From NCBI GenBank assembly GCA_001805965.1, contig MHHG01000006.1, forward strand, positions 3,741 to 67,740: 64,000 bases of DNA, given 5' to 3'. Below, one piece after another: positions 13,081-36,154 of the stretch. Numbering within the stretch: position 1 is the first letter of the stretch; each line of letters begins with the position of its first letter. Below the pieces are notes generated by a model, which did no database searches, was not told the origin of the DNA, and saw only the letters and a program-made list of their open reading frames with translations. Source of the stretch: Omnitrophica WOR_2 bacterium RIFOXYA2_FULL_38_17. Its GTDB lineage: Bacteria; Omnitrophota; Gorgyraeia; Zapsychrales; Zapsychraceae. The position numbers and the translations under genes were made by a program.

Positions 13081-13118
13081 GCTGATTTAGTAAAAGACTG
13101 GCCAGTTTGAATAAATTT

Positions 13119-13192
13119 GCGCCTGTAACTCAGATGGACAGAGTGCGTCCCTCCTAAGGACGAAGTCGGAGGTTCGAATCCGCCCAGGCGCA
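13119..13192 (+). tRNA. tRNA-Arg (anticodon CCT)
   Basis: Cloverleaf read by hand: acceptor GCGCCTG/CAGGCGC, anticodon stem CGTCC/GGACG with loop CTCCTAA, T-arm GGAGG-TTCGAAT-CCGCC, discriminator A. No encoded CCA. Confidence 0.85.
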
Positions 13193-13197
13193 TTAAA

Positions 13198-13230
13198 AAG
13201 AATTCCCTTTTTAGGGAATTCTTTTTTTTT
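13198..13230 (+). terminator. rho-independent terminator downstream of tRNA-Arg
   Basis: Perfect 10-bp stem (aagaattccc / gggaattctt) with a 6-nt loop, followed by T7+. Confidence 0.8.
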
Positions 13231-13593
13231 GTAAGCGAAGGCAATTTATCAGAAAAAAATCCGCATGTTTAGCAGAAACAATAAGGCTTTTCAATTATCT
13301 TAATATCTTTAATCGTAATAATCTAAAAATTAAATTAAACAAAAGGGAAGAAGACATAAATAAGTTCTAGTTTGTTTAATTAGTTTGTTTTAATTTGTGC
13401 CTGCTGGTAAGAGGGCAACAAGAGATTCGTATGTGCCGACGGTAAACAATGTTTTAAAATATAAAAATAAATGAAATTGTGTTTTGAATAAATCCAATGT
13501 TTGGTATGATTAAATAGCATCCAAAAAAAATACTGATCAACGTTATAGTGTATACAGTTTATTACTCCATTAAAAATTTCATTAAAAAGAACA

Positions 13594-14196
13594 ATGAACA
13601 GAGAAGAAATTTACGACCATCTCGCTCAGGTATATTTGGGCAAAAGAAAAGAAGTTGATGTTAAGAAAAAGCGTCAAAAAAACGCATGGTTGCTTGTGAA
13701 CATTTTCATTTCCGTATTAATATTTACTAGTGCAATTTGGGGGTTTACGGCTTTTTTAACGCAGAGGGGAACATCTCTTCAGAGTAATGTGATTTTTTCA
13801 TTAAATCGCGGACCAATAAGTGTTGATTATAATTTCAAAGATACATTTTCTCCTGAAAAAACATTTTCTTTGGTTGTTCCAGACATGGATGTTTCGAAAT
13901 ATCAGGCTATTGAGTTTTCAATTAGAGGTAAAGAAGAGGGTACTCCTGGAGTAGTTAAAATTGTTATTGCTAATGAAAAGAATGAGACTGCCTCATATTA
14001 TGTTCAAGGCGTGAATCTGAAGTGGCAGGATATTAATATTCCTTTGAGTGAATTTAAGCAGATTACTGATTGGTCAAGCTTGACAGATATTTCTTTTGTT
14101 TTAGAGGTTTGGAATGTTGATGATAAAAAGGGAATTATTCTTATAGAAGATGTTCGTTTTTCAGGTGCTTATGATGCGAGTGCTTCAAAGGTATAG
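13594..14196 (+). CDS. hypothetical single-pass membrane protein with basic cytoplasmic N-tail and extracytoplasmic beta-rich (possibly CBM-like) domain
   Basis: One TM helix at about aa 31-55, preceded by a Lys/Arg-rich tail (KRKEVDVKKKRQKN). The C-terminal 140 aa has an alternating beta pattern. The gene lies 42 nt upstream of the ParA-CBM48 gene. Confidence 0.45.
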   Translation: MNREEIYDHLAQVYLGKRKEVDVKKKRQKNAWLLVNIFISVLIFTSAIWGFTAFLTQRGTSLQSNVIFSLNRGPISVDYNFKDTFSPEKTFSLVVPDMDVSKYQAIEFSIRGKEEGTPGVVKIVIANEKNETASYYVQGVNLKWQDINIPLSEFKQITDWSSLTDISFVLEVWNVDDKKGIILIEDVRFSGAYDASASKV

Positions 14197-14237
14197 AAGA
14201 AAACAAGCTTTTGGGTAGAGAAAGGGGATAAAAAAGC

Positions 14238-15368
14238 ATGAAGATTATTTCAATTGCCAATCAAAAAGGGGGATGTGGGAAAACTACTACAGCTATTAAT
14301 TTAGCTTCTGCGCTCGGAGTGAATGGCAAAAAAGTACTGTTAATTGATCTGGACCCGCAAGCACATGCTACTCTAGGATTGAACGTTGAAAGTCAGGATA
14401 GCATATATAATGTTATATCAAAATTGACCCCCAGAAAATTAAAGATTGAAGATATTATAAAGCCAGTTGAGGATAATTTTGATATAGTTCCTTCAAATAT
14501 TCTAGTTGGGACCCTTGAACAAGAATTATCTGATGAAATTGGTAGAGAGCTTAAGTTATATGAGGTCGTATCTGGTATTAGGAAAAAATATGACTATATT
14601 CTGATCGACTGTCCTCCAAGTTTAGGTATTCTCACTGTAAACTCGATCCGGGTCAGCGATGAAGTAATGGTTCCTGTTGAAACAAGCAGATTCTCTATGC
14701 AGGGCGTGGACCATATTATGGATATTATTAATTTGATCAGAGAGCGTTTATACCATCAAGTCAAATGTAAGATTCTAATTACTATGTTTGATTCAAGATT
14801 AAGGCATTCATTTTCAATGTTAGGCGCTTTTAAAGAGAAATTTGGCACACTGCTTTACGATACTATTATTCATGTGAATGTCAAATTAAAAGAATCAGTC
14901 GTTATTGGTAAGACAGTAGCAGCTTTTGATAAATATTGTCGAGGTTCAAAGGATTATAATTCTTTAAGTAAGGAAATTATTTTCTTGGATAGTCAGAATG
15001 AGGAAGAACAGGAGCTGGCTCAAGAGAGGTCAGTTTTCAGGCCTTTATCTAATAAGATGAAAGAGACAGTAAAAGCTGAAGCTAAGCAGTTCTATGTTAC
15101 CAGGTTTGCTATTGAAGCGCCTGAAGCAAGAACAGTATATGTAACTGGAAGTTTTAATGATTGGTCATTAAATGATACCTGTCGTTTGAATTCAGTGAAT
15201 GGAAATTGGTTTGTAGATATCCCTTTGAAGCCTGGTGTTTATGAATATCAGTTTATTGTTGATGGGGTTTGGAAGGAAGATCCAGCTAATTGCAGAAAAG
15301 AAAGAAACCCATATGGTGATGATAATTCACTAATTGAGGTTACTGCTGATCAGGCTATAAATGTTTAA
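14238..15368 (+). CDS. ParA/MinD-family (deviant Walker A) ATPase fused to a C-terminal CBM48/AMPK-beta-type glycogen-binding domain
   Basis: N-terminal KGGCGKTT deviant Walker A and a full ParA/Soj-like fold (about 250 aa). C-terminal about 85 aa (VYVTGSFNDWSLNDTCRLNSVNGNWFVDIPLKPGVYEYQFIVDGVWKEDP) aligns residue-by-residue with the AMPK beta glycogen-binding domain, including the conserved Trp residues. Confidence 0.8.
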   Translation: MKIISIANQKGGCGKTTTAINLASALGVNGKKVLLIDLDPQAHATLGLNVESQDSIYNVISKLTPRKLKIEDIIKPVEDNFDIVPSNILVGTLEQELSDEIGRELKLYEVVSGIRKKYDYILIDCPPSLGILTVNSIRVSDEVMVPVETSRFSMQGVDHIMDIINLIRERLYHQVKCKILITMFDSRLRHSFSMLGAFKEKFGTLLYDTIIHVNVKLKESVVIGKTVAAFDKYCRGSKDYNSLSKEIIFLDSQNEEEQELAQERSVFRPLSNKMKETVKAEAKQFYVTRFAIEAPEARTVYVTGSFNDWSLNDTCRLNSVNGNWFVDIPLKPGVYEYQFIVDGVWKEDPANCRKERNPYGDDNSLIEVTADQAINV

Positions 15369-15404: not shown

Positions 15405-15728
15405 ATGAGCAAAAGAATTTCAAATGACGACCCTCAAGTAGTTGATGGTAAAATCTTCGCAGTACTGTCCTACCTTTCTATACTTTGTATAATCCCATTA
15501 ATCCTAAAAAAAGATAATGAATTTGTTCTCAAGCATGGAAAACAAGGGCTTGTCATATTTGTTTCAGAGGTTGCTGTTTTTATTCTCAGCATTGTTTTTC
15601 CATGGATATTTAAATTCGGCATGTTTCTTTTGCTAATAATGTCTTTTATAGGTATTGTTGCTGTTCTAGAAGGGAAATATACAAGGCTTCCTTTTGTTGC
15701 AGATATAGCAGATTCAATTGTTCTATAG
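15405..15728 (+). CDS. DUF4870-family small membrane protein
   Basis: Signature block SYLSILCIIPLILKKDNEFVLKHGKQGL and three TM helices. A paralog lies at 46234..46680. Confidence 0.55.
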   Translation: MSKRISNDDPQVVDGKIFAVLSYLSILCIIPLILKKDNEFVLKHGKQGLVIFVSEVAVFILSIVFPWIFKFGMFLLLIMSFIGIVAVLEGKYTRLPFVADIADSIVL

Positions 15729-15831
15729 TCTTTTACAGTAGAACAGCCCATATAATCTTAATTAATCTTTTGAACAGTTCTAATGGAATAGCTGTGTTTT
15801 CTTGCGGCTTTTTTGAAAGCTAAGGAATTTT

Positions 15832-16419
15832 ATGGTTTTAGACAGTATTCTTGATGCAATAAAAAATTTATTAACAGGGGGTAATTCTAAAAGAAAAAGA
15901 ATTTCTCGCAAAGTAATTAAGAAAAAGCCAAATAGTAATAAACCGTCCTTGCCAAAAAAAAATCCTAAAAAAACACCAAAGAATAAGTCTGCGGTAAAAA
16001 AGAAAACTATTATCAAGAAAAAGAAAGTTGTTGTTAACCGCTCTAAGCCTGAATTGCGAAAGAAGCCTGTTGCAAAGAAAACGTCTCCCGTAAAATTAAG
16101 AAATAAGCCGAAGGTATCTAAGAAGGTAGTAAAAAGTAAAACAGCTATAGAAGAAGCGAAAGGAGAGTTAGTTGGAGAGATCACCCATTTTTTTTCCCGT
16201 ATAAGTGTTATCGTGGTGAAAATAGTTTATGGAAAGCTGTCGGTTGGTGATGAGATAAGGATAAAAGGTAAAGTAACAAACTTTGTGCAAAAGGTTGATT
16301 CACTGCAATTAGAAAGCATTGATGTTAAGGTTGTAAAGAAGGGGCAGATTGTAGGGTTACAAGTCAAAAAAATAGCTAAGGTGGGAGACAGGGTCTTTAG
16401 GTTAAAAAAATTTAGATAG
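15832..16419 (+). CDS. histone H1/Hc1-like lysine-rich protein fused to a translation-factor domain-II-like beta-barrel
   Basis: Residues about 20-115 are a Lys/Pro/Ser-rich basic low-complexity tail (KKKPNSNKPSLPKKNPKKTPKNK...). The C-terminal about 80 aa (KLSVGDEIRIKGKV...VGLQV...KVGDRVF) resembles the EF-Tu/IF2 domain II beta-barrel. Codon usage supports + strand coding. Confidence 0.5.
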   Translation: MVLDSILDAIKNLLTGGNSKRKRISRKVIKKKPNSNKPSLPKKNPKKTPKNKSAVKKKTIIKKKKVVVNRSKPELRKKPVAKKTSPVKLRNKPKVSKKVVKSKTAIEEAKGELVGEITHFFSRISVIVVKIVYGKLSVGDEIRIKGKVTNFVQKVDSLQLESIDVKVVKKGQIVGLQVKKIAKVGDRVFRLKKFR

Positions 16420-21377: not shown

Positions 21378-23609
21378 ATGAAAGAAGAGCACATTAATGA
21401 GATAAAGGCTATTATTGTTTTAGCCATAGGTATGATTATTTTTGCCAGTCTCATTTCTTTTACACCAGAAGACCTTCCGTTTTATACTTCTAGTCCAAAT
21501 ATTCCAACACAAAATTTAATTCGTGTAACGGGTGCTTATTTAGCAAGTTCGTTATTATTTGTTTTTGGATATAGTTCTTATGTTTTGGTGCTGTATCTGT
21601 TCTTTTGGAGTTGGAATAAATTTACATCCAGAGATATAGTTTTCTCAGTCCCCAAATTTATAAGTTTTATTGTACTGTTCTGTGTTGTTAGCGCGTGGTT
21701 GGGAATGACAAGTTCCCAGGATGCTGTTATTCGTTTTGAAAAAGCTGGATTGGTTGGTTCCTTGCTCTCGGAATTTTTAATATCTTATATCGGCAGAATG
21801 GGTGCGCATATTGTTCTATTGACACTGGGCGTGTTATCTCTGATTCTTACTGGTGAATTCCTGGTTACTCCTTTGTTCTTAAGGATTGTTGAGGGGTTTC
21901 AAGGATTTTATGCTGGAATAAAATTGAGAATGTTGTCTAATGAGACAAGGTTGCCGGCAGTCAATATTAAATCGATCTTTGAAAAAAAGTTCAAGAAAAA
22001 GATTGATAAAGAAGCGCCTGCGTATGTTGGGCAAAAGGGTCTTGATGAGGACGAAGGATATGAAGATATTTATGAAGATGAGGAAGATCAAGAAAAGCCT
22101 AAGGGCAAGAAGAACAAAGCTCCAAAAATAAAGATAGCTCCTAATCAGACTAATAAGAGTAATTCTTCAGAAGATGAGATTGAAAAGATTGTTGGAGAAT
22201 ACAGGATACCTTCTATTGATCTTCTTGACGATTCTCCGGTTGTTTCAAGTTCTAAGATAGAAAGTGGATTGAAAAGTGGGGCTAAGCTGTTAGAAGAAAC
22301 ATTAGCACAGTTTGGAGTGGACGCTCGTGTTGCGGATATTGAGAGAGGCCCGGCGATTACAAGATATGAATTAGAGCCTGCACCAGGTGTAAAGGTTAAT
22401 CAGTTTACAACCCTGTCTGATGATATTGCTCTTGCCATGAAAGCTACAGCTGTTCGCATTGTTGCCCCAATACCAGGAAAGAATAGGGTCGGAATTGAAG
22501 TGCCCAACGATTCATCAGCTACGGTTTTTCTTAAAGATGTTATGTGCAGCGATGAATTCAGGTCTTCAAAATCGAAATTGACTTTAGCTCTAGGAAAAGA
22601 TATTGCAGGTAAGCCTATGATAGCTGACCTTGCAGAGATGCCTCATTTGCTTATTGCCGGTACGACAGGCTCCGGTAAGACAGTTTGTGTGAATGGCATA
22701 ATAATGTCTATGATATTGAATGTAACGCCTGATGAAGTAAAATTTGTTATGGTTGACCCTAAAATGGTCGAGATGGCGCAATATAATGATATACCACATT
22801 TGCTGTGTCCTACAGTGACGGATTCAAAGAAAGCTGCAAATGTCCTTAACTGGGTTGTTTTAGAAATGGAAACGCGTTATAAACAGTTATCAAAAGCTGG
22901 TGTAAGAAATATTAAAGGTTTCAATGAACAAGGCAACAAGATGCCATATATTGTTGTTATAATAGATGAGCTTGCTGATCTTATGCAGGTTTCTGCAAAA
23001 ACTGTAGAAAGCTCTATAACACGGATTGCTCAATTGTCACGAGCTGTAGGCATTCATTTGATCTTGGCTACTCAAAGGCCTTCTGTCGATGTTATTACCG
23101 GCGTTATTAAGGCAAATTTTCCTGCAAGGATCTCTTTTAAAGTTGCTTCTAAGATCGATTCAAGAACGGTTTTAGATGCAAACGGAGCTGAATGCTTATT
23201 GGGTAAAGGGGATATGCTTTTTATTCAACCTGGTGATTCAAAGCCTACAAGGGGCCAGGGTAATTATGTTAATGATAAAGAAATTAATAGGGTTATTCAA
23301 TTCATTAAAGATCAGCAGGCGCCAAATTATGATGAAAGTATAATCCATTTACAAAAAACATCCGGTGCCGGTGGAACAGAAAACCAAGATGAGTATTATA
23401 ATGAAGCGGTAAAGCTTGTTATAGAAACAAACCAGGCTTCTGTTTCAATATTGCAAAGAAGGATGCGTCTTGGATATACCCGTGCAGCAAGATTGATCGA
23501 TATGATGGAGCAAAGTGGCATAGTCGGACCTTATTGCGGCAGTAAACCTAGAGATATTCTTGTTGATAGAGAACAATGGTTATTAGAGAATATGAATGAT
23601 GATAAATAA
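21378..23609 (+). CDS. ftsK: DNA translocase FtsK
   Basis: N-terminal 4 TM helices, an acidic/Lys-rich linker, an FtsK/SpoIIIE ATPase core (GTTGSGKT Walker A) and a C-terminal gamma domain. Confidence 0.9.
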   Translation: MKEEHINEIKAIIVLAIGMIIFASLISFTPEDLPFYTSSPNIPTQNLIRVTGAYLASSLLFVFGYSSYVLVLYLFFWSWNKFTSRDIVFSVPKFISFIVLFCVVSAWLGMTSSQDAVIRFEKAGLVGSLLSEFLISYIGRMGAHIVLLTLGVLSLILTGEFLVTPLFLRIVEGFQGFYAGIKLRMLSNETRLPAVNIKSIFEKKFKKKIDKEAPAYVGQKGLDEDEGYEDIYEDEEDQEKPKGKKNKAPKIKIAPNQTNKSNSSEDEIEKIVGEYRIPSIDLLDDSPVVSSSKIESGLKSGAKLLEETLAQFGVDARVADIERGPAITRYELEPAPGVKVNQFTTLSDDIALAMKATAVRIVAPIPGKNRVGIEVPNDSSATVFLKDVMCSDEFRSSKSKLTLALGKDIAGKPMIADLAEMPHLLIAGTTGSGKTVCVNGIIMSMILNVTPDEVKFVMVDPKMVEMAQYNDIPHLLCPTVTDSKKAANVLNWVVLEMETRYKQLSKAGVRNIKGFNEQGNKMPYIVVIIDELADLMQVSAKTVESSITRIAQLSRAVGIHLILATQRPSVDVITGVIKANFPARISFKVASKIDSRTVLDANGAECLLGKGDMLFIQPGDSKPTRGQGNYVNDKEINRVIQFIKDQQAPNYDESIIHLQKTSGAGGTENQDEYYNEAVKLVIETNQASVSILQRRMRLGYTRAARLIDMMEQSGIVGPYCGSKPRDILVDREQWLLENMNDDK

Positions 23610-24975
23610 ACCTGATTTTTTTAAAAAAGATCCTTTGGAAAAAGAGGATAAAATAAAATTAGAAAATATCGATATTGATGAGATTGAATATGTAAATGAT
23701 ATTGAAACAGATACAGAAGAAAACATTGATGATCCGATCGCAGAATATAACGAATTAAACAGTAGTATTTCTGAGGGTGATAGTGATAAAGATCTTTTTG
23801 GCGATAGCCTTTTAAAGAATGTAAAGCCAGAGATAATTGCTGACGGGGAACAAGAAACTACATTTGACAGTGAACTAGATGAGGATATTAAGATAGTTGA
23901 GGATCCTGAAATATCAATAGCGCCAGAACATTGCTCTGAGCCTGAAGAAGAGCCTCAATTGCAGCATGCAATAAAAAAGGCGGATGATTTTAATCCTGAG
24001 AATAAAGGTGAAATTCTCAAAAGAGAAAGGCTGAAGAAGGGATTATCTTTAGAATTTATTCATGAAGTTACTAAAGTGCCTATGGACGTTCTGCGTGCCA
24101 TAGAAGAAGGATATAGCGTTAGGACGCTGTCTCCCTTTTATTTGAAAGGTTTTACAAAGATATATGCAAAATATCTGGAAGTTGATACTGATAGGGTAAT
24201 TGATGATTATAAGAGGGAGAAACTTCCGGAGCATGTTAAATATGAAGCAAATGATTTTGATTTTAATAAATGGTTGTCTAAAATCTTTACTAAAAAAAGA
24301 AAACAGCAGATCGTTATTGGATTAGGCCTTCTTCTGATACTTTTTACGATCTTTAAGATAGCAACTTTTATAGCTAATTTAAAACCAAAACAAAAAGTAA
24401 TAAAGATTGATAAAGTTAACACGGAAACAAAAGTAATTGTTGTGCCAGAAAAGAAAATAACCGTTAGAAAGCCTAAGGAAGAGGTAAAGCAAACAATTAT
24501 ACCGATAAAGGAAGAGAAAAAAGAAGTTAAGGTTGTTGCAGAGAAGAAATCTGAAGAGGTTGTAAAGAAAAAAGAAGCTGAGAAGCAAGCTTTAATAAAG
24601 AACGTAGCTGAAAAGAAAGTAGTTGAAACTGCAAAAACAATTCCTGCTGTAACCCCACCACAAAATGTTGTTCCCAAGGCTGTTAGTGCTGTAAAGACAG
24701 AGGTGCCTGTACAAAAGAATGTCAGTCTTACTGTCCGTGCCAAAAAGAATAGTTGGCTTAGTGTAAAAGTTGATGGAAATGTTGTTTTTCAATCAACACT
24801 GAAACTAGGTTCTGTTGAAACATGGATGGCTGATGAAAGCATTGAGATCTCAGGCAAAAATATCAACCAACTTGATTTTGAGCTAAACGGCAAGATGATC
24901 AGGTCATTAGGAAGAAAAGACAGCAAGGCTAAGAGGCTTATAGTGACAAAAGAAGGCCTGACAGTTACGAACTAA
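23596..24975 (+). CDS. rodZ: RodZ-like cytoskeleton protein (HTH_XRE + TM + C-terminal DUF4115) with long acidic N-terminal extension
   Basis: HTH (LKRERLKKGLSLEFIHEVTKVPMDVLRAIEEG). One TM (IVIGLGLLLILFTIF). K/E/V-rich linker. C-terminal beta domain (VSLTVRAKKNSWLSVKVDGNVVF). Overlaps the ftsK end by 14 nt. Confidence 0.65.
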   Translation: MMINKPDFFKKDPLEKEDKIKLENIDIDEIEYVNDIETDTEENIDDPIAEYNELNSSISEGDSDKDLFGDSLLKNVKPEIIADGEQETTFDSELDEDIKIVEDPEISIAPEHCSEPEEEPQLQHAIKKADDFNPENKGEILKRERLKKGLSLEFIHEVTKVPMDVLRAIEEGYSVRTLSPFYLKGFTKIYAKYLEVDTDRVIDDYKREKLPEHVKYEANDFDFNKWLSKIFTKKRKQQIVIGLGLLLILFTIFKIATFIANLKPKQKVIKIDKVNTETKVIVVPEKKITVRKPKEEVKQTIIPIKEEKKEVKVVAEKKSEEVVKKKEAEKQALIKNVAEKKVVETAKTIPAVTPPQNVVPKAVSAVKTEVPVQKNVSLTVRAKKNSWLSVKVDGNVVFQSTLKLGSVETWMADESIEISGKNINQLDFELNGKMIRSLGRKDSKAKRLIVTKEGLTVTN

Positions 24976-28137: not shown

Positions 28138-29559
28138 ATGGCATCAGTTACTAGAAAATCCTTAGTAAGGGATCATTTTGATAGCATTGCCAGTGAATAT
28201 GATTATTGGAAGAAAAAGAACAGCTATTACTATGACACAATAATCGAATTTGTATCGAGGATCGTGCCAGAAGGCAGCACTGTTCTTGAGATAGGTTGTG
28301 CGACTGGCTCGATCCTTTCAGCGATAAAGCCTTCTAGAGGCGTCGGAGTGGATCTTAGCTCTGAAATGATCAAGATCGCTTCAGCAAAATATCCTGAATA
28401 TTCTTTCTACAGCCTACCTATAGAAAAACTGCAGCTTGATGAAAAGTTTGATTTCATTTTAATGATCGATGTTGTTGATCATGTTTATGATGTAATGGAT
28501 GTCTTTGAGCAAGTCCACAAGTTCTGCAAGCCCACAACAAGAATAGTTCTTACCACAATAAATCCCTGGTGGGACCCGATCCTTTCAGTAATGGAAAGGC
28601 TTGGTGCTAAGATGCCGGAAGGGCCCCATAATTTTATAGAAAAAGGGAATTTAAAAAGAATGGCTGAGGCGGAAGATATTTCAGTTAGTTATAGTGGGTA
28701 TCTTTTATTGTTCCCTAAAAAAATCCCAATACTGTCATTTCTGGCAAATTCAATTGGCGTCAGAACATGGCTTATAAATAAATTCTCTTGTGTTCAGTAT
28801 ATGATAATGCAGACATTACCAAAGAATACAAATAATCTTGACCTTGGGTGTTCTGTTATTATCCCGTGTCACAATGAACAAGACAATATTCAGGATGCTA
28901 TCAAGAGAGTTCCTCATATGGGAAAGGGCACTGAGATTATTGTCGTTGATGACGGGAGCACTGATTCAACGTCCAAAAAAGTGAAAGAAATGATGGAGTT
29001 CTATTCAAACTTAAATTTAATAAGTTACCCGAAGAACGAAGGAAAAGGCGCTGCGGTCAAGAAGGGATTTGAGGCAGCTACGAAAGAAGTGGTAATGGTA
29101 TTGGATGCAGATCTTTCAGTAAGTCCGGAAGAGCTGCCGAGGTTTTTTGAGCCATTAAATAAAGGTATCTGTCAGTTTGTCAATGGTACGAGAATGGTCT
29201 ACCCGATGGAACATCAGGCAATGAGGATATTGAATCTTTTGGGCAATAAGTTATTCGGATTTATCCTTTCATTTATTATTCAGCAGAATCTCACAGATAC
29301 TTTGTGCGGGACAAAAGCGCTTTATCGTAAAGATGTTGATAGAATTAAATGGGGCACGGATAAGTGGGGGGATTTTGATCTTCTATTCGGAGCAACAAGA
29401 ATAGGCAGTAAGATAATCGAGATACCGGTGCACTATATGTCCAGAAAGACAGGTGAGTCCAAAATGAGATCATTTAAACACGGGCTTCATTTGTTAAGGG
29501 CTTGTTTTTTAGGGTTTATAGAACTAGTATCAAGCCGGTCTGATGAAAAGTTCAAGTGA
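28138..29559 (+). CDS. bifunctional class I SAM-dependent methyltransferase / GT2 polyprenyl-phosphate sugar synthase (ArnC/DPM1/GtrB-like) fusion
   Basis: N-terminal half carries a methyltransferase motif I (VLEIGCATGSIL). C-terminal half is GT2 (CSVIIPCHNEQDNI; VVDDGSTDST; LDAD). It ends in a short hydrophobic segment. Confidence 0.75.
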   Translation: MASVTRKSLVRDHFDSIASEYDYWKKKNSYYYDTIIEFVSRIVPEGSTVLEIGCATGSILSAIKPSRGVGVDLSSEMIKIASAKYPEYSFYSLPIEKLQLDEKFDFILMIDVVDHVYDVMDVFEQVHKFCKPTTRIVLTTINPWWDPILSVMERLGAKMPEGPHNFIEKGNLKRMAEAEDISVSYSGYLLLFPKKIPILSFLANSIGVRTWLINKFSCVQYMIMQTLPKNTNNLDLGCSVIIPCHNEQDNIQDAIKRVPHMGKGTEIIVVDDGSTDSTSKKVKEMMEFYSNLNLISYPKNEGKGAAVKKGFEAATKEVVMVLDADLSVSPEELPRFFEPLNKGICQFVNGTRMVYPMEHQAMRILNLLGNKLFGFILSFIIQQNLTDTLCGTKALYRKDVDRIKWGTDKWGDFDLLFGATRIGSKIIEIPVHYMSRKTGESKMRSFKHGLHLLRACFLGFIELVSSRSDEKFK

Positions 29560-30923
29560 TTTATAAGTATTATTAAAATTGGAGCAAGCGGGTAGAAATG
29601 TAATATCAATCTTGAAAGAGTTGTTACTTTTTTATCGCCTGCTATCCATGGATAATTTGAAGTAAATAAGGCTATTGCCGAGTAAAGACCTATAAAAAGA
29701 AAAATGCTTACAAGAACAAGGAAAGCTTCCCTGTTCTTTTTTTTATAATCCCATAATAAAATACTAACACAAGCTATCATCCATACGATATTCCAGTTTC
29801 CAGATAAAAACATATTAAGATAGAACGCATGAATAACTTTTGGTAGCTTCAATAACTGTCCCAAGCCCAACACGAGGGCAGTCTTATCACAATCTGCAGT
29901 ACCATCAATAAGATTATTGGTAAAAAATTTATAAATATGAAAAGACAGGCAAATTGTAAGCGAGGGTATTAATAACGCCAGGGTATTTTTTATGTTCTCT
30001 TTAAAAGAAGTTTTATTAAAAAAACTGATCATTATAAACAGGATGATATAAATAACAATAAACGATGAGCCTTCAAGCTTAGTGAATGATGCAAATCCTG
30101 CAAAAAATGCTGCTGTTATAAGGAAAGAGGTTTTTTTGCTGGATGACCAAAGTATCAACATCATTATAGTTATGCAGTTGTAATACATTAAAAATAGGTC
30201 TCTATATGAAATGGTGGCATGATAAAAGGCCAGGTTAGATGATATTAAGAGTACACAGCCCAGCAATGACCATGTCGTATCCGTGTAGTTCTTTAGAAAT
30301 TTATATTGAACTATGAGGAAAGAAAGAAAAGTACAAGGGAAAATAATCTTTATGTATTGATCTGACCAGCGACCTATATTAATAGCTGTCCAAGTTTCAG
30401 CCAAAGAAGTGTGAAGCGGGTATGTCGGATGCGGCAGGATCTTAAGAGAGGGAATGCTCTTTTCATAAAAGAAAATCTTTGCTTTGAAAGCGATCGTAGC
30501 AAAAGCGTCCCATGAGTCAATAGGCCAGCTTATCGCCCCCCAGAATATCTGAAGTATATTTACAGTGATAAATATTATAAGAAAGGAGTTAAATGATATT
30601 AGCATTATGCTTGGTTTTGGTGTAGTGACAATATCCTTTGGAGTTTGGATATTTTCAGATAGCGGGGTGCTATGCTTTGCTATAAGTAGGAAAATAAAAG
30701 AAAAACAAACGAGAGGAAATGTAGTATTTGCAAAATTTAATTCTAACCCGGATATGCCAATAATAAACATCCATATTGTAAGTATGCCCATGCCCATTCC
30801 ATATGAGAGGGCCAGATTTAAAACAATATCAAGTTTGTTCTTTGTAAAAATAAAAGATATTAGGCAATAACCACAAAACACGGGTATTAGTACGCTTATT
30901 AATAATAAGATAGAAAGGGCCAT
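29487..30923 (-). CDS. GT-C fold polytopic membrane glycosyltransferase (PMT/ArnT-like, GT39/GT83 family)
   Basis: 478 aa with at least 11 TM helices and an architecture like 4-amino-4-deoxy-L-arabinose or protein mannosyltransferases. Its 3' end overlaps the 3' end of the GT2 fusion gene convergently by 73 nt. Confidence 0.55.
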   Translation of the reverse strand: MALSILLLISVLIPVFCGYCLISFIFTKNKLDIVLNLALSYGMGMGILTIWMFIIGISGLELNFANTTFPLVCFSFIFLLIAKHSTPLSENIQTPKDIVTTPKPSIMLISFNSFLIIFITVNILQIFWGAISWPIDSWDAFATIAFKAKIFFYEKSIPSLKILPHPTYPLHTSLAETWTAINIGRWSDQYIKIIFPCTFLSFLIVQYKFLKNYTDTTWSLLGCVLLISSNLAFYHATISYRDLFLMYYNCITIMMLILWSSSKKTSFLITAAFFAGFASFTKLEGSSFIVIYIILFIMISFFNKTSFKENIKNTLALLIPSLTICLSFHIYKFFTNNLIDGTADCDKTALVLGLGQLLKLPKVIHAFYLNMFLSGNWNIVWMIACVSILLWDYKKKNREAFLVLVSIFLFIGLYSAIALFTSNYPWIAGDKKVTTLSRLILHFYPLAPILIILINHLNFSSDRLDTSSINPKKQALNK

Positions 30924-32602: not shown

Positions 32603-35600
32603 ATGATGATCTCAAGGAGATTGTTTATGTATGTTTATTCAGGGAAAAGACGTTTTTGCGCAATTAATCGTCTTTTTATTGCATTTATATCTTTTTCGCT
32701 GTTATTTAGCTCAATGATCACAGGACCTGCTTTTGCTCAAAGCATTGGAATGCTTAACCTGCCGGTTCCTGGCACTATGGTCGTTCAATCACAGGCATTT
32801 GTCCCGGTGCTGCTTAAAGGTATGACAATTTATCCGGATGACCCGCTGAAATTTGACTTTATTGTCGATAGTGGGAACACGGATTTTGATCAAGACGAGA
32901 TACAGAAAGAATCAGAGAAGCTTGTGAAATATTTTCTGGCTTCAATGACCGTTCCCAAGGATGACCTCTGGGTCAATCTTTCTCCTTATGAAGGGGACCG
33001 CATAATAACGGATGAGCTGGGGAAAACTGAATTGGGGAGAGATCTTTTAGCTCAGGATTATATTTTAAAGCAATTAACAGCATCTTTGATGTATCCGGAA
33101 GATGAATTGGGCAGGGAATTCTGGGAAAGAATATATGAAAAAGTTCAAGATCAGTTTGGAACATCGGATATTCCCGTCAATACTTTCAACAAAGTTTGGA
33201 TCCTCCCGGAAAGTGCTACTGTTTACGAAAACGGGCATACTGTTTTTGTTGTAGAGTCAAAATTAAAGGTAATGTTGGACAGCGATTATCAGGCGATGAT
33301 GCATAGTGCTGATTCCGTAGGGGATTCCCTTGCTGGTGCCCGTGATCAAAATGGGATTAATGTAAACGGACAGGTACAAGACCTGTCCTTACAGAAATAT
33401 TCAAATATAGTCCGAGAGATACTCATTCCCGAGATTGAAAAAGAAGTTAATGAGGGAAAGAATTTTGCTCCTCTTCGTCAGATATATAATTCTTTGATAC
33501 TTGCAAAATGGTACAAAGAAACGATCAAAGATTCTTTATTGTCCTCAATTTATATTGATCAGAACAAGACCGCGGGCGTTGAGCTTGATGATACAGCGTT
33601 TAAAGAAGAGATATACCAAAGGTATCTTAAGGCATATAAAAAAGGCGTTTTTGATTATATAAAGGAAGATTATGATGCTTTAACTGATCAGGTTGTTGAT
33701 AGAAAATATTTTTCAGGCGGCTTTAGGGATACCTCAATGCTGATAGACAAGACAAGCAACAAAGCAATTATCGGAAGGTCAGTTACTGGTAAGACATTCA
33801 GTTTTGAAATGGGCATTAAGCCGGAAATCACCAGGCCGGATGTTGCTATGTTATCTGGCAAGAGGATATTAGTAGTAGACGGTGATGATACGTATTCAGA
33901 TTTGATGGAAGATATTCTTGAAAGGGAAAACGCTGTTGTTGTAACTGCTTCAGATGGGCAGCAGGCCTTGGTTATTTTAAAAGCAGACAGAAAATTTGAT
34001 CTGGTTTTAGCTGACCTGGATATGCCTAATATGAGTGGTGATCAGTTAGCAAGAATGGTAAATGAATTGGCTTTTGGGATACCTGTTGTCCTTCAAACCT
34101 GGAATGGGTCAAAAATACCGCAACTTTCTGAAAGCCTTGCAGGCATTGCTAGAGTTGTGGATAAAGGCTTGTCATTTGACCTCGGCAAATTTTACAAGGA
34201 AATTGAAAGTTCAGTTACTCAAGAAAATGCTTTGAAAAAAGATGCAGCGATGCTCTCGGGGAAAAGGATATTAGTTGTTGATGACAGTGATTTCATGCTA
34301 AAGGTCATGAAGAGCCTTTTAGAAGGACAGAATGCTGAAGTTGTAACGGCAGCTGATGGCAAAGATGCTTTAGATATACTTAAGGACGATTCAAGATTTG
34401 ACTTAATAGTTTCAGATTTTAGGATGCCTATAGTTAAGGGAGATGAACTAGCTCAGGTTGTAAAGGATTCAGGGTATGGCATCCCAGTGCTGATTCAAAC
34501 AACAAATACTGAGGAGGTGGTTTCTGGCTTGTCGAAAAGATTATCGGGAATTGCCACGGTAATTGATAAAGGCGACCTCGGGAATTTGTATAAAGGGATC
34601 AATGGTTTAATCTCACCTGAGAGAAAATCCGGAGCAGATAGGTCCATGCTCTCTGGAAAAAGGATCTTGGTAGTTGATGATTATGATTCAATGAGAGAAG
34701 GTATGGAGATACTTTTTCGAATGAGGGGTGCTGTTGTTGTCACTGCTTCAAATGGACAGGAAGCATTAGATATATTGGCAAAAGACCAGAAATTCGATTT
34801 GATAATGACAGACTATCAAATGCCTGTAATGGATGGGGTAGAATTGGCCCAAAAAGTAAGTGAAACTAAACTTGGGATACCTGTTCTCATGCAAACCGCG
34901 AAAGATGAGGAAATCCCTAGATTAACAGAGGAGCTTTCAGGTGTCGCAAATGTAATAAAAAAAGGTCTAGATAATAAAATTATTGTTGAGGCTGTTGCTA
35001 ATTCAATAGAAGGTACCATTCCAGCAAAGAAAGACAGCTCTATGTTAGCTGGAAAGAGAGTATTGGTTGTTGATGATTATCCCGGTATTGCGAGAATGAT
35101 CCAAAGGGTATTAGGCTTAAAAAATATTGCAGTTGTAACTGCTAATAATGGACAGGAAGCATTGGATATATTGGCAAAAGACCAGAAATTCGATTTGATA
35201 ATGACAGACTATCAAATGCCTGTGATGGATGGGGTAGAATTAGCCAAAAAAGTAAGTGAATCTAAATTTGGGATACCTGTTCTTATGCAAACTGCAAGAG
35301 AGGAGGAAATACCTCGATTAAAAGAAGATCTTTCAGGTGTTGCAACAATAATCAAAAAAGGCTTTGGCGTTGATGCGCTTGTTGAGGCAATCGCTGGATC
35401 AATTAAGAGCGTGGCTTCTTTAAACAAAGAGGGCTCTATGCTTAGTGAAAAGGCAAAAGTTCAGTTATCACAAATGCATGTAACTGAAGATGATGAAGTC
35501 CAGCTTAGAAGATTATCCGAAAGTGACTGGTATGAACTTATTAAACAGATAAATCAATCTAGGGTAGTAAATCCGGTCTCTTATGATGTGACAAGTGATA

Positions 35601-36154
35601 TTTTCGGTATTTATGTTGACGAGGAGCAATCGGGCTCAATGACTCAAGCTGCAATAAGAAAGATCTTGGATGCGTTAGATGATTCGTTCAACAGGCCGAT
35701 AAATCTTGTGGTTTTTACTGATTTTTCTTTAGAGGTTGGATTGGTTTATGAGGGGCTGCATAACGTATTGTTTGTTTCAACGCCTGCATTTTTAGTTGCT
35801 ATGAGCTCTGGGGAAAAATATTCTCCTGTGATCGTGTCAGGAGATATGTTGAGTAATAATAGCGATGAAGATTTGTTGGTTATTAAAGAACAACTTCAAT
35901 CAGCTACTTCTGATAATCCTCAAGCAGGAGATGTCGGTGGTATTGATATGAACAGTATTGACTTTGAAAGGACTGGCGAGGGCGTAAAAATTGAATTTTC
36001 ACCTAGCGCTTTTGACCCGGTGATAATAAATATGGGGATAGAGGGATTTTCTCCGGTGATTATTAATTTAACACCGTTAAATAGTGTGTTTCCACTTCTT
36101 GGTTTTGATTCAAGAGATGAAGATCCCTTAGAAATATCATTGGGGAGGAATTAG
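32603..36154 (+). CDS. large protein with Sec-type signal peptide, about 380-aa N-terminal domain, four tandem receiver (REC) domains and about 250-aa C-terminal domain; no output domain recognised
   Basis: Four repeats of the CheY-like receiver fold, each with an acidic pocket (VVDGDD, VVDDSD, VVDDYD, VVDDYP), a phospho-acceptor Asp (ADLDMP, SDFRMP, TDYQMP x2) and a conserved Lys (VVDKG, VIDKG, VIKKG, IIKKG). N-terminus is LFIAFISFSLLFSSMITGPAFA|QS. The true start is probably the in-frame ATG at 32627, which follows an RBS. Confidence 0.8.
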   Translation: MMISRRLFMYVYSGKRRFCAINRLFIAFISFSLLFSSMITGPAFAQSIGMLNLPVPGTMVVQSQAFVPVLLKGMTIYPDDPLKFDFIVDSGNTDFDQDEIQKESEKLVKYFLASMTVPKDDLWVNLSPYEGDRIITDELGKTELGRDLLAQDYILKQLTASLMYPEDELGREFWERIYEKVQDQFGTSDIPVNTFNKVWILPESATVYENGHTVFVVESKLKVMLDSDYQAMMHSADSVGDSLAGARDQNGINVNGQVQDLSLQKYSNIVREILIPEIEKEVNEGKNFAPLRQIYNSLILAKWYKETIKDSLLSSIYIDQNKTAGVELDDTAFKEEIYQRYLKAYKKGVFDYIKEDYDALTDQVVDRKYFSGGFRDTSMLIDKTSNKAIIGRSVTGKTFSFEMGIKPEITRPDVAMLSGKRILVVDGDDTYSDLMEDILERENAVVVTASDGQQALVILKADRKFDLVLADLDMPNMSGDQLARMVNELAFGIPVVLQTWNGSKIPQLSESLAGIARVVDKGLSFDLGKFYKEIESSVTQENALKKDAAMLSGKRILVVDDSDFMLKVMKSLLEGQNAEVVTAADGKDALDILKDDSRFDLIVSDFRMPIVKGDELAQVVKDSGYGIPVLIQTTNTEEVVSGLSKRLSGIATVIDKGDLGNLYKGINGLISPERKSGADRSMLSGKRILVVDDYDSMREGMEILFRMRGAVVVTASNGQEALDILAKDQKFDLIMTDYQMPVMDGVELAQKVSETKLGIPVLMQTAKDEEIPRLTEELSGVANVIKKGLDNKIIVEAVANSIEGTIPAKKDSSMLAGKRVLVVDDYPGIARMIQRVLGLKNIAVVTANNGQEALDILAKDQKFDLIMTDYQMPVMDGVELAKKVSESKFGIPVLMQTAREEEIPRLKEDLSGVATIIKKGFGVDALVEAIAGSIKSVASLNKEGSMLSEKAKVQLSQMHVTEDDEVQLRRLSESDWYELIKQINQSRVVNPVSYDVTSDIFGIYVDEEQSGSMTQAAIRKILDALDDSFNRPINLVVFTDFSLEVGLVYEGLHNVLFVSTPAFLVAMSSGEKYSPVIVSGDMLSNNSDEDLLVIKEQLQSATSDNPQAGDVGGIDMNSIDFERTGEGVKIEFSPSAFDPVIINMGIEGFSPVIINLTPLNSVFPLLGFDSRDEDPLEISLGRN
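34757..35362 (+). repeat. recent tandem duplication inside the multi-REC gene (REC3 vs REC4, about 90% nt identity, 396-nt period)
   Basis: 34757-34966 and 35153-35362 are near-identical at the nucleotide level. The antisense ORFs at 34816..35019 and 35212..35427 in the six-frame track are also duplicates. Confidence 0.8.

Follow-up and report, generated by a model that had tools for sequence, protein, structure and literature searches.

Bacteria generally rely on ATPases of the ParA/MinD family to place large objects, such as chromosomes, plasmids, carboxysomes, chemoreceptor arrays, flagella and division sites, and in every characterised case known to us, a separate adaptor joins the ATPase to its cargo. 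McdA/McdB, which positions carboxysomes, PomXYZ and ParC/ParP represent orphan ParA cargo systems, and PhaM tethers polyhydroxybutyrate (PHB) granules to the nucleoid. For glycogen, the most widespread carbon store, there is to our knowledge essentially no established account of organisation or inheritance in bacteria. We analyzed a 64,000-nt stretch of the genome of Omnitrophica WOR_2 bacterium RIFOXYA2_FULL_38_17 (contig MHHG01000006.1, positions 3,741 to 67,740; hereafter the window, whose numbering is used throughout, with features on the plus strand unless stated otherwise). Its source belongs to the Omnitrophota, a group of uncultured bacteria whose cells are often ultra-small and which possibly depend on a host. 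The window contains a gene for a 376-aa protein (14238..15368; GenBank A2Y03_09330), in which a ParA/Soj-type ATPase is fused to a carbohydrate-binding module (CBM) of family CBM48, preceded by a gene for a 200-aa single-pass inner-membrane protein of N-in/C-out topology (13594..14196; A2Y03_09335, "hypothetical protein"), referred to below as the fusion and the partner. Our leading interpretation, which we hold tentatively, is that this locus encodes a ParA/Soj-derived positioning ATPase with its own cargo-binding module, which organises glycogen.

An earlier note on this DNA had read the two genes by eye as a positioning ATPase fused to a glycogen-binding domain and a membrane partner, in an architecture that it did not recognise as characterised. 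Both open reading frames (ORFs) were present as it had given them, separated by 41 nt, and the motif strings that it quoted (VYVTGSFNDW, EYQFIVDGVW and KRKEVDVKKKRQKN) were all found in the sequence. The Pfam search that it had proposed returned both AAA_31 (aa 1-175; 186 bits, cut-off 27) and AMPK1_CBM (PF16561; aa 296-372; 52.5 bits, cut-off 26.8) in one protein, together with CbiA (64 bits, cut-off 25.4), which shows that the fusion seen by eye is real. It is not an accident of assembly either, because both domains were present in all of the best 120 database matches, which came from Omnitrophota metagenome-assembled genomes (MAGs) at 56-100% identity and in all of which PF16561 was precomputed, and because a scan of species-representative genomes found 588 relatives of the fusion. 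Literature searches found no paper on a protein that combines ParA with CBM48/AMPK1_CBM or on ParA-driven positioning of glycogen, in agreement with the view that the architecture is uncharacterised; a 2026 paper on CipG was set aside as a precedent, since its subject is the coupling of carboxysomes to GlgC and not ParA. Database names for the fusion are "hypothetical" and "AAA family ATPase", and many members carry the JGI label "chromosome partitioning protein".

Across the Omnitrophota, the fusion is at least 47% identical, and full-length fusions at 34-44% identity were found in MAGs labelled Planctomycetota (Phycisphaerae, Sedimentisphaerales, Pirellulales), Desulfobacterota, Myxococcota, Spirochaetaceae, Margulisiibacteriota, Eisenbacteria and Auribacter. 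A search seeded with a Desulfobacteraceae member yielded at least 120 further fusion clusters, from MAGs and metagenomes only, with no named cultured species listed. Gene neighbourhoods were analyzed at the loci of the best 80 of the 588 relatives, which are cited below by their L numbers. Some MAGs named "uncultured Planctomycetales bacterium" (L004, L012, L014, L015, L018, L023 and L037) contained the complete Omnitrophota-type cluster with fusions 50-66% identical, and the "Planctomycetales" labels of these third-party annotation (TPA) assemblies are probably wrong.

The closest described relatives of the ATPase domain (aa 1-250; 14238..14987) are the chromosomal ParA/Soj proteins, which it resembles in fold, in motifs and in its best sequence and structure matches. 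An alignment of 72 sequences, consisting of the window fusion and 71 relatives drawn from the 80 loci, showed that the signature lysine K10 and Walker A residues K15 and T16 (within NQKGGCGKTT, aa 8-17; 14259-14288), the Walker A' residues D37 and D39, and the Walker B residue D124 are invariant (72/72). By these motifs and by its hidden Markov model (HMM) matches, the fusion is assigned to the ParA/MinD, or deviant Walker A, superfamily, and with the catalytic motifs all kept, it is predicted to be catalytically intact. The nearest solved structures by sequence were Myxococcus xanthus ParA (8RAY, 158 bits), Thermus thermophilus Soj (1WCV) and Helicobacter pylori Soj (6IUB), with McdA, ParF, MinD, FleN and BcsQ far behind, and a fold search placed these proteins in identical order. 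Each PDB alignment covered ~250 columns, and the two-domain architecture is covered by no solved structure. The features of MinD, namely an amphipathic membrane-targeting helix at the C-terminus and MinC/MinE partners, were not found, as the C-terminus is the CBM, the window has no min genes, and TIGR01968 scored 53.7 against a cut-off of 212.9. The absence of a signal peptide and an N-terminus that begins directly with the Walker A strand (MKIISIANQKGG) indicate that the fusion is cytoplasmic.

Likeness to Soj extends to its surface for nonspecific DNA (nsDNA), a feature that the earlier note, which had correctly described a complete deviant-Walker-A fold, did not take into account. The nsDNA patch comprises R182, R194, R208 and R211 in T. 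thermophilus Soj, equivalent to R189, K201, R215 and R218 in Bacillus subtilis Soj (BsSoj) (PMC6393308). Through the Soj sequence alignment, these residues map onto R187, K199, V213 and K216 of the fusion, so that three of the four are retained. The R187 position is Arg in 71/72 fusions, the K199 position is Lys or Arg in 64/72, and the K216 position is Lys or Arg in 40 of the 41 Omnitrophota members. R187 and K216 match the two patch positions with mutagenesis support in B. subtilis (BsSoj R189 and R218), and the equivalent of R238 in M. xanthus ParA (MxParA) is likewise retained. Judged from the sequence, binding of the fusion to the nucleoid is plausible, and a nucleoid link is a likely part of its mechanism, given the close kinship of the ATPase with chromosomal Soj and the retention of most of the DNA-binding patch.

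The ATPase is followed by an acidic, low-complexity linker (aa 251-285; 14988..15092), whose length ranges from 9 to 102 aa over the 72 aligned fusions and for which the AlphaFold2 (AF2) model gave helices at aa 240-265 and 272-282 with low to moderate confidence. Its variable length, acidity and low complexity are as expected of a flexible tether, which it is predicted to be. Within it, a short helix of the form PLSxxMxExV (aa 269-279; 15042-15074) is kept in Omnitrophota, with M274 invariant in 44 sequences, and may be a second interaction site.

The C-terminal module (aa 286-370; 15093..15347) is of the CBM48/AMPK-beta type according to Pfam, PDB matches and the AF2 model, in which the predicted local distance difference test score (pLDDT) is ~88. 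Its closest described counterparts are the CBM of AMPK beta and the CBM48 domains of GlgB, pullulanase and SEX4, and it shares with them the PF16561 match, the Trp pair and the Asn of the sugar site. When aa 265-376 were compared with the PDB, the top matches were the CBMs of AMPK beta1 (1z0m, E 1.6e-7) and AMPK beta2 (E ~1e-7), and the next were glycogen- or starch-active proteins, namely GH13 pullulanase, GlgB, and the glucan phosphatases SEX4 and LSF1. The sugar contacts of AMPK beta1, which we take to be W100, K126, W133, L146 and N150, a numbering whose 33-residue spacing from Trp to Trp agrees with the alignment, correspond to W309, Q338, W345, Y359 and N363 of the fusion. Both platform residues, W309 and W345, are invariant (72/72); the L146 position is Phe or Tyr in 61/72 and the N150 position Asn or Asp in 70/72, and the K126 position is Arg in 35, Lys in 25 and Gln in 12. 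The claim of a built-in polysaccharide module is supported by the Trp platform, which is conserved, and is weakened at the K126 position, which is basic in 60/72 fusions but not in this one. The module differs from its counterparts in that it sits on a P-loop positioning ATPase and not on a kinase scaffold or glycoside hydrolase. We consider it plausible, from residue conservation and profile matches, that the module is a glycogen or alpha-glucan binder.

An exhaustive search with the linker and CBM recovered 8160 representative proteins. The nearest relatives outside the ParA fusions (P0126, P0131, P0132, P0141, P0222 and many others) are secreted proteins, each with a signal peptide, in which the module is repeated in tandem (3-18 copies), most commonly in a form of ~480 aa with 4 copies. 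In P0222, two copies of this CBM subtype are fused to a GH57 catalytic domain, which ties the subtype to alpha-glucan enzymes.

The partner had been described in the earlier note as a single-pass membrane protein with a basic cytoplasmic N-tail and a beta-rich, CBM-like exterior domain, and our results agree with this description. The transmembrane helix (aa 31-55; 13684..13758) was recognised as the hydrophobic stretch AWLLVNIFISVLIFTSAIWGFTAFL and as a helix by AF2, and eight Lys/Arg residues precede it while one follows, a charge distribution that by the positive-inside rule makes the N-tail cytoplasmic and puts the sandwich on the outer side of the membrane. The AF2 model (pLDDT 82) consists of a single continuous helix of aa 3-58, which spans the tail and the transmembrane segment, and a periplasmic beta-jelly-roll ectodomain (aa 68-192; 13795..14169; pLDDT ~90). 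Foldseek matched this ectodomain best to CBM11 structures in the PDB (6r3m and 1v0a; E 1e-7, TM-score 0.45-0.51, 16-17% identity), followed by CBM8, CBM28 and CBM30. We call it CBM-like at the level of the fold only, because the jelly-roll folds match but Pfam CBM_11 is sub-threshold on the partner (23.1 against a cut-off of 27; matched in 14/39 homologs). The 306 partner homologs are all unnamed or hypothetical, apart from one UniRef label, "CBM11 domain-containing", and NCBIfam holds no name for any of the partner, its diverged homolog fam9 (see below), the GH57 protein of related loci or the downstream proteins.

The same upstream neighbour was found in related genomes: a partner homolog lies directly upstream of the fusion in 41/41 Omnitrophota loci (fusion identity of at least 47%), and in 8 more distant loci this place is taken by fam9 (240-304 aa), which is a diverged partner homolog (hhalign probability 97.5%, E 7e-12 over the C-terminal domain). 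The two genes thus form a conserved pair and, probably together with a third gene, an operon. The earlier note had further taken the Lys/Arg-rich tail to be the peptide that acts on the ATPase. A basic patch is indeed there, its character kept and its sequence variable, but conservation is strongest in the amphipathic segment that precedes it, IYDHLAQVYLG, in which residues I6, Y7, D8, H9, L10, A11, Q12, V13, Y14 and G16, along with K17, are invariant in 39 homologs. We propose that this N-tail motif (aa 4-19, EEIYDHLAQVYLGKRK; 13603..13650), which comprises an amphipathic helix and the start of the basic patch, is a putative ParA-docking peptide. The periplasmic CBM11-like domain may supply a positional or environmental cue.

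Comparison with more distant loci that lack the membrane partner gave a second view of this peptide. There, the gene directly 3' of the fusion is of several unrelated kinds, which include degenerate CbiA/ParA-like proteins, AAA_22 proteins, Cys-containing proteins of ~180 aa and larger ones of ~480 aa in which Pfam recognises no domain, and nearly all of them open with a common peptide (MNKLKKLGKGLEDISYLFLS, MEKKSLGRGLEDIADIFIS, RRKLGRGLSDVSHIFLSG, KKLGRGLEDFSHLFLS, ISNIAHFFLSD, RSLEDISHFFLSG). Its consensus in other phyla is LGRGLxDISHxFLS, or LG[RK]GL[ES]D[IV]SH[IF]FLS, and the N-terminal motif by which chromosomal ParB interacts with ParA is likewise LGRGL with spaced hydrophobic residues after it. 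This ParB motif forms a short amphipathic helix with hydrophobic and basic residues (PMC12462528). The second half of the peptide, ISHIFLS, resembles LAQVYLG of the Omnitrophota partner and LAEVYFS of fam9. A regular expression for this second half matched, within the first 60 residues, 53/128 ORFs adjacent to the fusion on the same strand and 4/918 other ORFs of the same loci; because the expression was set post hoc and the 41 homologs of the 200-aa partner count as one family, both of which reduce the weight of this count, the meaningful point is the recurrence of the peptide on unrelated proteins. An out-of-sample match came from the complete chromosome CP070840.1, where the fusion is tightly paired with a 186-aa gene that opens with MEKKSLGRGFEEISNIFLST. 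Judged from these sequences, the peptide that interacts with ParA resembles a module which evolution has attached to different proteins.

Peptide-bearing genes downstream of the fusion were observed at L043, L051, L054, L055, L058, L059, L061, L069, L074, L075, L077, L079, L080, L081 and L083 (e.g. L083:11094-11654). At some of these loci (L043:12053-12748, L054:4253-5053 and counterparts in L059, L079 and L080), the gene forms part of a three-gene module unlike that of Omnitrophota, in which the ParA-CBM fusion is followed by a degenerate ParA-like protein and then by a protein of ~230-265 aa with a weak NucS_C (PD-(D/E)xK-like) match.

The site at which ParB docks on ParA is likewise recognisable in the fusion. 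The hydrophobic pocket for the ParB peptide, formed by L150, G151, L152 and L192 in MxParA, corresponds to L129, G130, I131 and L171, all of which are conserved, and the invariant surface Tyr of MxParA (Y81) most likely corresponds to Y57, which is Tyr in 69/72. The acidic residues of the pocket that receive the peptide Arg are partly kept, with E96 retained and with N58 and L89 at the positions of E82 and D110. Residue 58 is acidic in 10/12 fusions whose partner has the Arg of LGRGL, and it is Asn in 33/40 fusions with a homolog of the 200-aa partner and in 8/8 with fam9, both of which are partners without this Arg. Such a switch would fit docking at a common site, but each group is a clade and phylogeny confounds the comparison.

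Among described systems, those of the McdAB type come closest to the presumed task of this locus, the spacing of a non-DNA cytoplasmic cargo. Both have a ParA-type ATPase outside a par locus and a small partner gene whose N-terminal peptide is a likely regulator of the ATPase. They differ in that the McdAB-type adaptor sits on the cargo and the ParA has no cargo domain, whereas here the module is fused to the ATPase and the partner lies in the membrane, and in that the fusion is much closer to Soj (158 bits) than to McdA (52 bits), the latter ranking 17-21 in the fold search. PhaM is alike by analogy only, as it attaches a storage-polymer granule to DNA for inheritance by daughter cells; it is not an ATPase and its sequence is unrelated to the fusion.

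Combining these features, we suggest a mechanism in which the ATP-bound fusion would dimerise like Soj and bind the nucleoid through the basic patch R187, K199 and K216. The dimer would present two CBMs on flexible tethers, and these would grip cytoplasmic alpha-glucan, that is, glycogen particles. The N-tail helix of the partner would dock at the hydrophobic pocket at the dimer edge (L129, G130, I131 and L171, beside Y57) as the ParB peptide does in ParABS, and docking would either stimulate the hydrolysis of ATP, with release, or bring the dimer to the inner membrane. By cycling between these states, the system could spread glycogen out, tether it or partition it with respect to nucleoid and membrane. 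ParB peptides bind ParA opposite its DNA-binding face (PMC12462528), which makes a sandwich of membrane partner, ParA dimer and DNA, with dangling CBMs, geometrically possible. In other phyla, the same fusion would use different partners that carry the ParB-like LGRGL...SHxFLS peptide. From the sequence features, a role of the fusion in the positioning, segregation or inheritance of glycogen is plausible. A bolder form of this proposal, which we regard as possible and more doubtful, is that the locus represents the first system to position or partition glycogen granules actively, consisting of a ParA that has absorbed its adaptor (CBM48), a bridge to the nucleoid and a portable, ParB-derived peptide switch. 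In that form, the peptide would have been grafted onto a membrane CBM-like sensor in Omnitrophota and, in MAGs with the labels Desulfobacterota, Planctomycetota and others, onto degenerate ParA-like, AAA_22 or small Cys-rich proteins.

BcsQ, the ParA/MinD organiser of cellulose synthase, offers another point of comparison, with its polysaccharide link, its membrane partners and a Pfam CBP_BcsQ match to the fusion (43.6 bits). The fusion scored far below the equivalog cut-off (TIGR03371, 66 against 157.85), no bcs or other cellulose synthase genes lie nearby, and its CBM is of a type specific for alpha-glucan and not cellulose. A wider view of the neighbourhood is relevant here, as the earlier description of the system as a pair has to be extended by two further co-conserved genes, for a DUF4870 protein and a Lys-rich beta-barrel protein. 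The order of the extended cluster in Omnitrophota is an Alginate_exp-like outer-membrane porin, a GH57 glycoside hydrolase, the partner, the fusion, the DUF4870 protein with three transmembrane segments and the Lys-rich protein; the porin was found 2-3 genes upstream of the fusion in 30 Omnitrophota loci. One might suppose from this arrangement that the fusion is a BcsQ-like organiser of an envelope glycan machine, made up of the partner, the DUF4870 protein and the porin, which imports or exports glucan, with the chain held on the inside by the cytoplasmic CBM and on the outside by the CBM11-like domain of the partner. A partner with a periplasmic CBM-fold domain, the second co-conserved membrane protein, the porin and the CBP_BcsQ match would all fit such a machine. 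We nevertheless judge it improbable, given that Soj is a much closer match to the ATPase than BcsQ, which is far lower in the fold search; that there is no adjacent glycosyltransferase, synthase or transporter gene; that tblastn with the porin, GH57 and GlgC-like sequences of related loci gave no match in the window; and that distant clades have soluble partners instead of the membrane partner.

The proximity of the ATPase to Soj raises the further question of a partition function. Translation of the window and of 81 loci (1.2 Mb) in all six frames revealed no ParB box motifs, ParBc was absent among the neighbours of the fusion, no second deviant Walker A protein was found in the window, and the parS consensus TGTTNCACGTGAAACA had no occurrence in the window at up to two mismatches and no exact occurrence in the 81 loci. 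These parB and parS negatives apply to the window and to up to 10 kb around the fusion in the 81 loci, not to whole genomes. A conventional partition locus was rejected on the local absence of parB motifs, parS-like sites, and min or plasmid genes, as the earlier note had argued, and homologs in the form of ordinary ParA proteins beside parB and parS were not seen within 10 kb in the 81 loci. The fusion thus differs from chromosomal ParA/Soj in its C-terminal CBM48 on a flexible linker, in the lack of ParB and parS nearby, in a ParA_partition score (NCBIfam NF041546, 111 bits) below the cut-off of 180, and in its partners, none of which is a ParB and which are either a membrane protein whose ectodomain is CBM-like or proteins of other kinds, while it retains three of four nsDNA-patch residues and the ParB-peptide pocket and, in related clades, has partners with an LGRGL-type peptide.

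In L042 (12597-14612) and its counterparts in L047 and L057, which represent one distant lineage, the partner-fusion pair was observed between purL/purQ and mnmG (gidA). The latter is a classic neighbour of chromosomal parAB, and this placement may be a trace of descent from a chromosomal par locus. A family after mnmG (fam39) was tried as ParB and rejected, as its sequence, judged by reading, has a radical-SAM look.

An explanation that gives these chromosomal features more weight is that the fusion is a chromosome-segregation ParA (Soj) or a DNA-acting paralog, with the nucleoid as its substrate; the partner would replace ParB as activator or anchor, and the CBM would serve either as an accessory that links glycogen with the nucleoid or with division, or only as a structural Ig-like domain. 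Its closest relatives in sequence and structure are chromosomal Soj/ParA proteins, the validated DNA-binding positions and the ParB pocket are retained, many members bear the JGI partitioning label, and such a role would suit the presence of mnmG in the three loci above and, in the window, of ftsK with a rodZ-like gene at a distance of 6 kb on the downstream side. Conservation of the fusion across the Omnitrophota, at about the level of PNPase or sigma-70, could also point to a core role such as chromosome segregation. Against this stand the absence of a parB signature within 10 kb in the 81 loci and of parS-like sites, and the low ParA_partition score. Moreover, Myxococcota, Desulfobacterota and Planctomycetota normally have a canonical ParABS system, so that in MAGs with these labels the fusion would be an extra ParA, and a purely structural domain would leave the invariant sugar-platform residues unexplained. 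On balance, we consider this explanation unlikely.

The level of conservation is one of several observations that weigh against glycogen positioning. On the side of the ATPase, the V213 position is never basic (hydrophobic in 72/72), and the K216 position is basic in only 19/31 distant members. The tail motif of the Omnitrophota partner lacks the central Arg of LGRGL, and a stimulator that is anchored in the membrane and not borne on the cargo is unorthodox, being at odds with canonical ParA cargo positioning. On the side of the carbohydrate, the link between CBM and glycogen is drawn from sequence; the K126 equivalent of this protein is Gln (Q338); CBM_48 (PF02922) falls just under its cut-off (18.9 against 22.4); and the tandem-CBM proteins, and weakly the window fusion, match the NCBIfam T9SS_plug model below threshold, indicating that the CBM48-like fold is not restricted to sugar binding. 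A Pfam scan of 20 further large ORFs found no glycogen gene in the window. These last points would suit a C-terminal sandwich that no longer binds sugar and instead makes protein contacts, with a cargo of another kind or with the Lys-rich protein, so that the ATPase positions a non-glycan cargo, and E-set and CBM48-like folds do act as protein modules elsewhere. We regard a non-glycan cargo as slightly less probable than an envelope machine, since PF16561 is well over its cut-off, the Trp pair is invariant and the N150 and aromatic L146 equivalents are kept across several phyla, and the same CBM subtype is fused to GH57.

The genomic association with glycogen metabolism is uneven. Omnitrophota MAGs are reported to encode glycogen synthesis (PMC8542988). 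In 28 Omnitrophota loci, the second gene upstream of the fusion encodes a GH57 glycoside hydrolase (Pfam 227 bits), which has no signal peptide and is thus taken to be cytoplasmic. GH57 also occurs close to the fusion in L045 and L059, and a GlgC-like gene, at a distance of 4-5 kb, in L042 and L047 only. Adding to the points just listed, GH57 adjacency is limited to a subclade of 47-54% identity, and the window and its closest relatives are without it. A batch Pfam scan of 150 neighbours of distant fusions found heterogeneous housekeeping genes and no systematic enrichment of glycogen genes. As dimerisation in the ParA family is ATP-dependent, the fusion could also be imagined as a metabolic switch, an AMPK-like energy sensor whose dimerisation tunes the binding or cross-linking of glycogen by the CBMs and the access of GH57. 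The AMPK-beta type of the CBM, the adjacent GH57 in the 28 loci and the two CBMs per dimer on linkers of 9-102 aa would be in line with this idea, but it leaves the conserved membrane partner, the ParB-type peptides of neighbours and the retained DNA patch unexplained and is without precedent among ParA/MinD ATPases, and we rate it as the least probable of the explanations considered. Positioning of glycogen, as proposed above, is the reading that we prefer.

The remaining features of the locus concern its transcription and its neighbours. All four genes of the cluster (A2Y03_09335, _09330, _09325 and _09320) are labelled "hypothetical protein" in GenBank. Directly downstream of the fusion, in the window and in 23 loci, is the gene for the DUF4870 protein (A2Y03_09325; 15405..15728), a 107-aa, MamF_MmsF-like membrane protein with three transmembrane segments and a weak PF09685 match. 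A terminator-like hairpin follows it (15790..15809), and another, with a 14-bp stem and a T-run (13195..13226), lies directly 3' of tRNA-Arg(CCT) (13118-13193; Rfam and ARAGORN) and would be the upstream limit of the transcription unit. A consensus scan for terminators suggests that the partner, the fusion and the 107-aa gene form a three-gene unit, of which the hairpin at 15790 is the probable end. The stretch between the upstream hairpin and the partner gene (13227-13593) is free of Rfam matches and of ORFs that reach 60 aa; the region that corresponds to this stretch in related genomes contains the porin and GH57 genes. Rfam detected two tRNAs and nothing else in the window.

The gene for the Lys-rich protein (15832..16419) is placed by conservation at +1 to +3 from the fusion, as observed in 33 Omnitrophota loci. 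Its product is 195 aa as the longest ORF, and its start codon is uncertain because GenBank annotates either a 195-aa or a 90-aa version. It consists of a variable, disordered poly-Lys N-terminus and a conserved beta-barrel of ~75 aa with a weak match to EF-Tu domain 2 (22 bits). The protein could be a polyanion or DNA binder that belongs to the system, although its membership is uncertain.

Upstream of the cluster are genes for an aminoacyl-tRNA synthetase, PPDK, sigma-70 and APRT in addition to the tRNA-Arg, and downstream are rpsO, pnp, ftsK, a rodZ-like gene and miaB, with ligA, ftsI and murE further on. A plasmid or mobile-element origin was rejected on the uniform composition of the window and on these flanks of chromosomal housekeeping genes. 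The ftsK gene (743 aa, four FtsK domains) and the overlapping rodZ-like gene (HTH_25 and RodZ_C) occupy 21378-24972, past rpsO-pnp, and in L001 a gene of similar size (783 aa, no Pfam match recorded) follows rpsO-pnp. Elsewhere in the window, we observed a protein of 1183 aa (32603-36151) that has four receiver domains but lacks a recognised output domain and, on the minus strand of an otherwise plus-strand region, a 478-aa ORF without a Pfam match (29490-30923).

A ParA that is conserved in several phyla and has a built-in putative glycogen module makes the organisation of glycogen testable, since the platform residues W309 and W345, the likely regulatory peptide and its pocket can now be named. 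Our results also suggest that the N-terminal peptide of ParB is a mobile module that is reused on unrelated proteins, which could help to find the partners of orphan ParAs. In Omnitrophota, the conservation of the cluster equals that of core housekeeping genes, a hint that its role in the cell is important. If the fusion does position glycogen, it would add a new class of cargo and an "adaptor-less" architecture to the ParA/MinD family.

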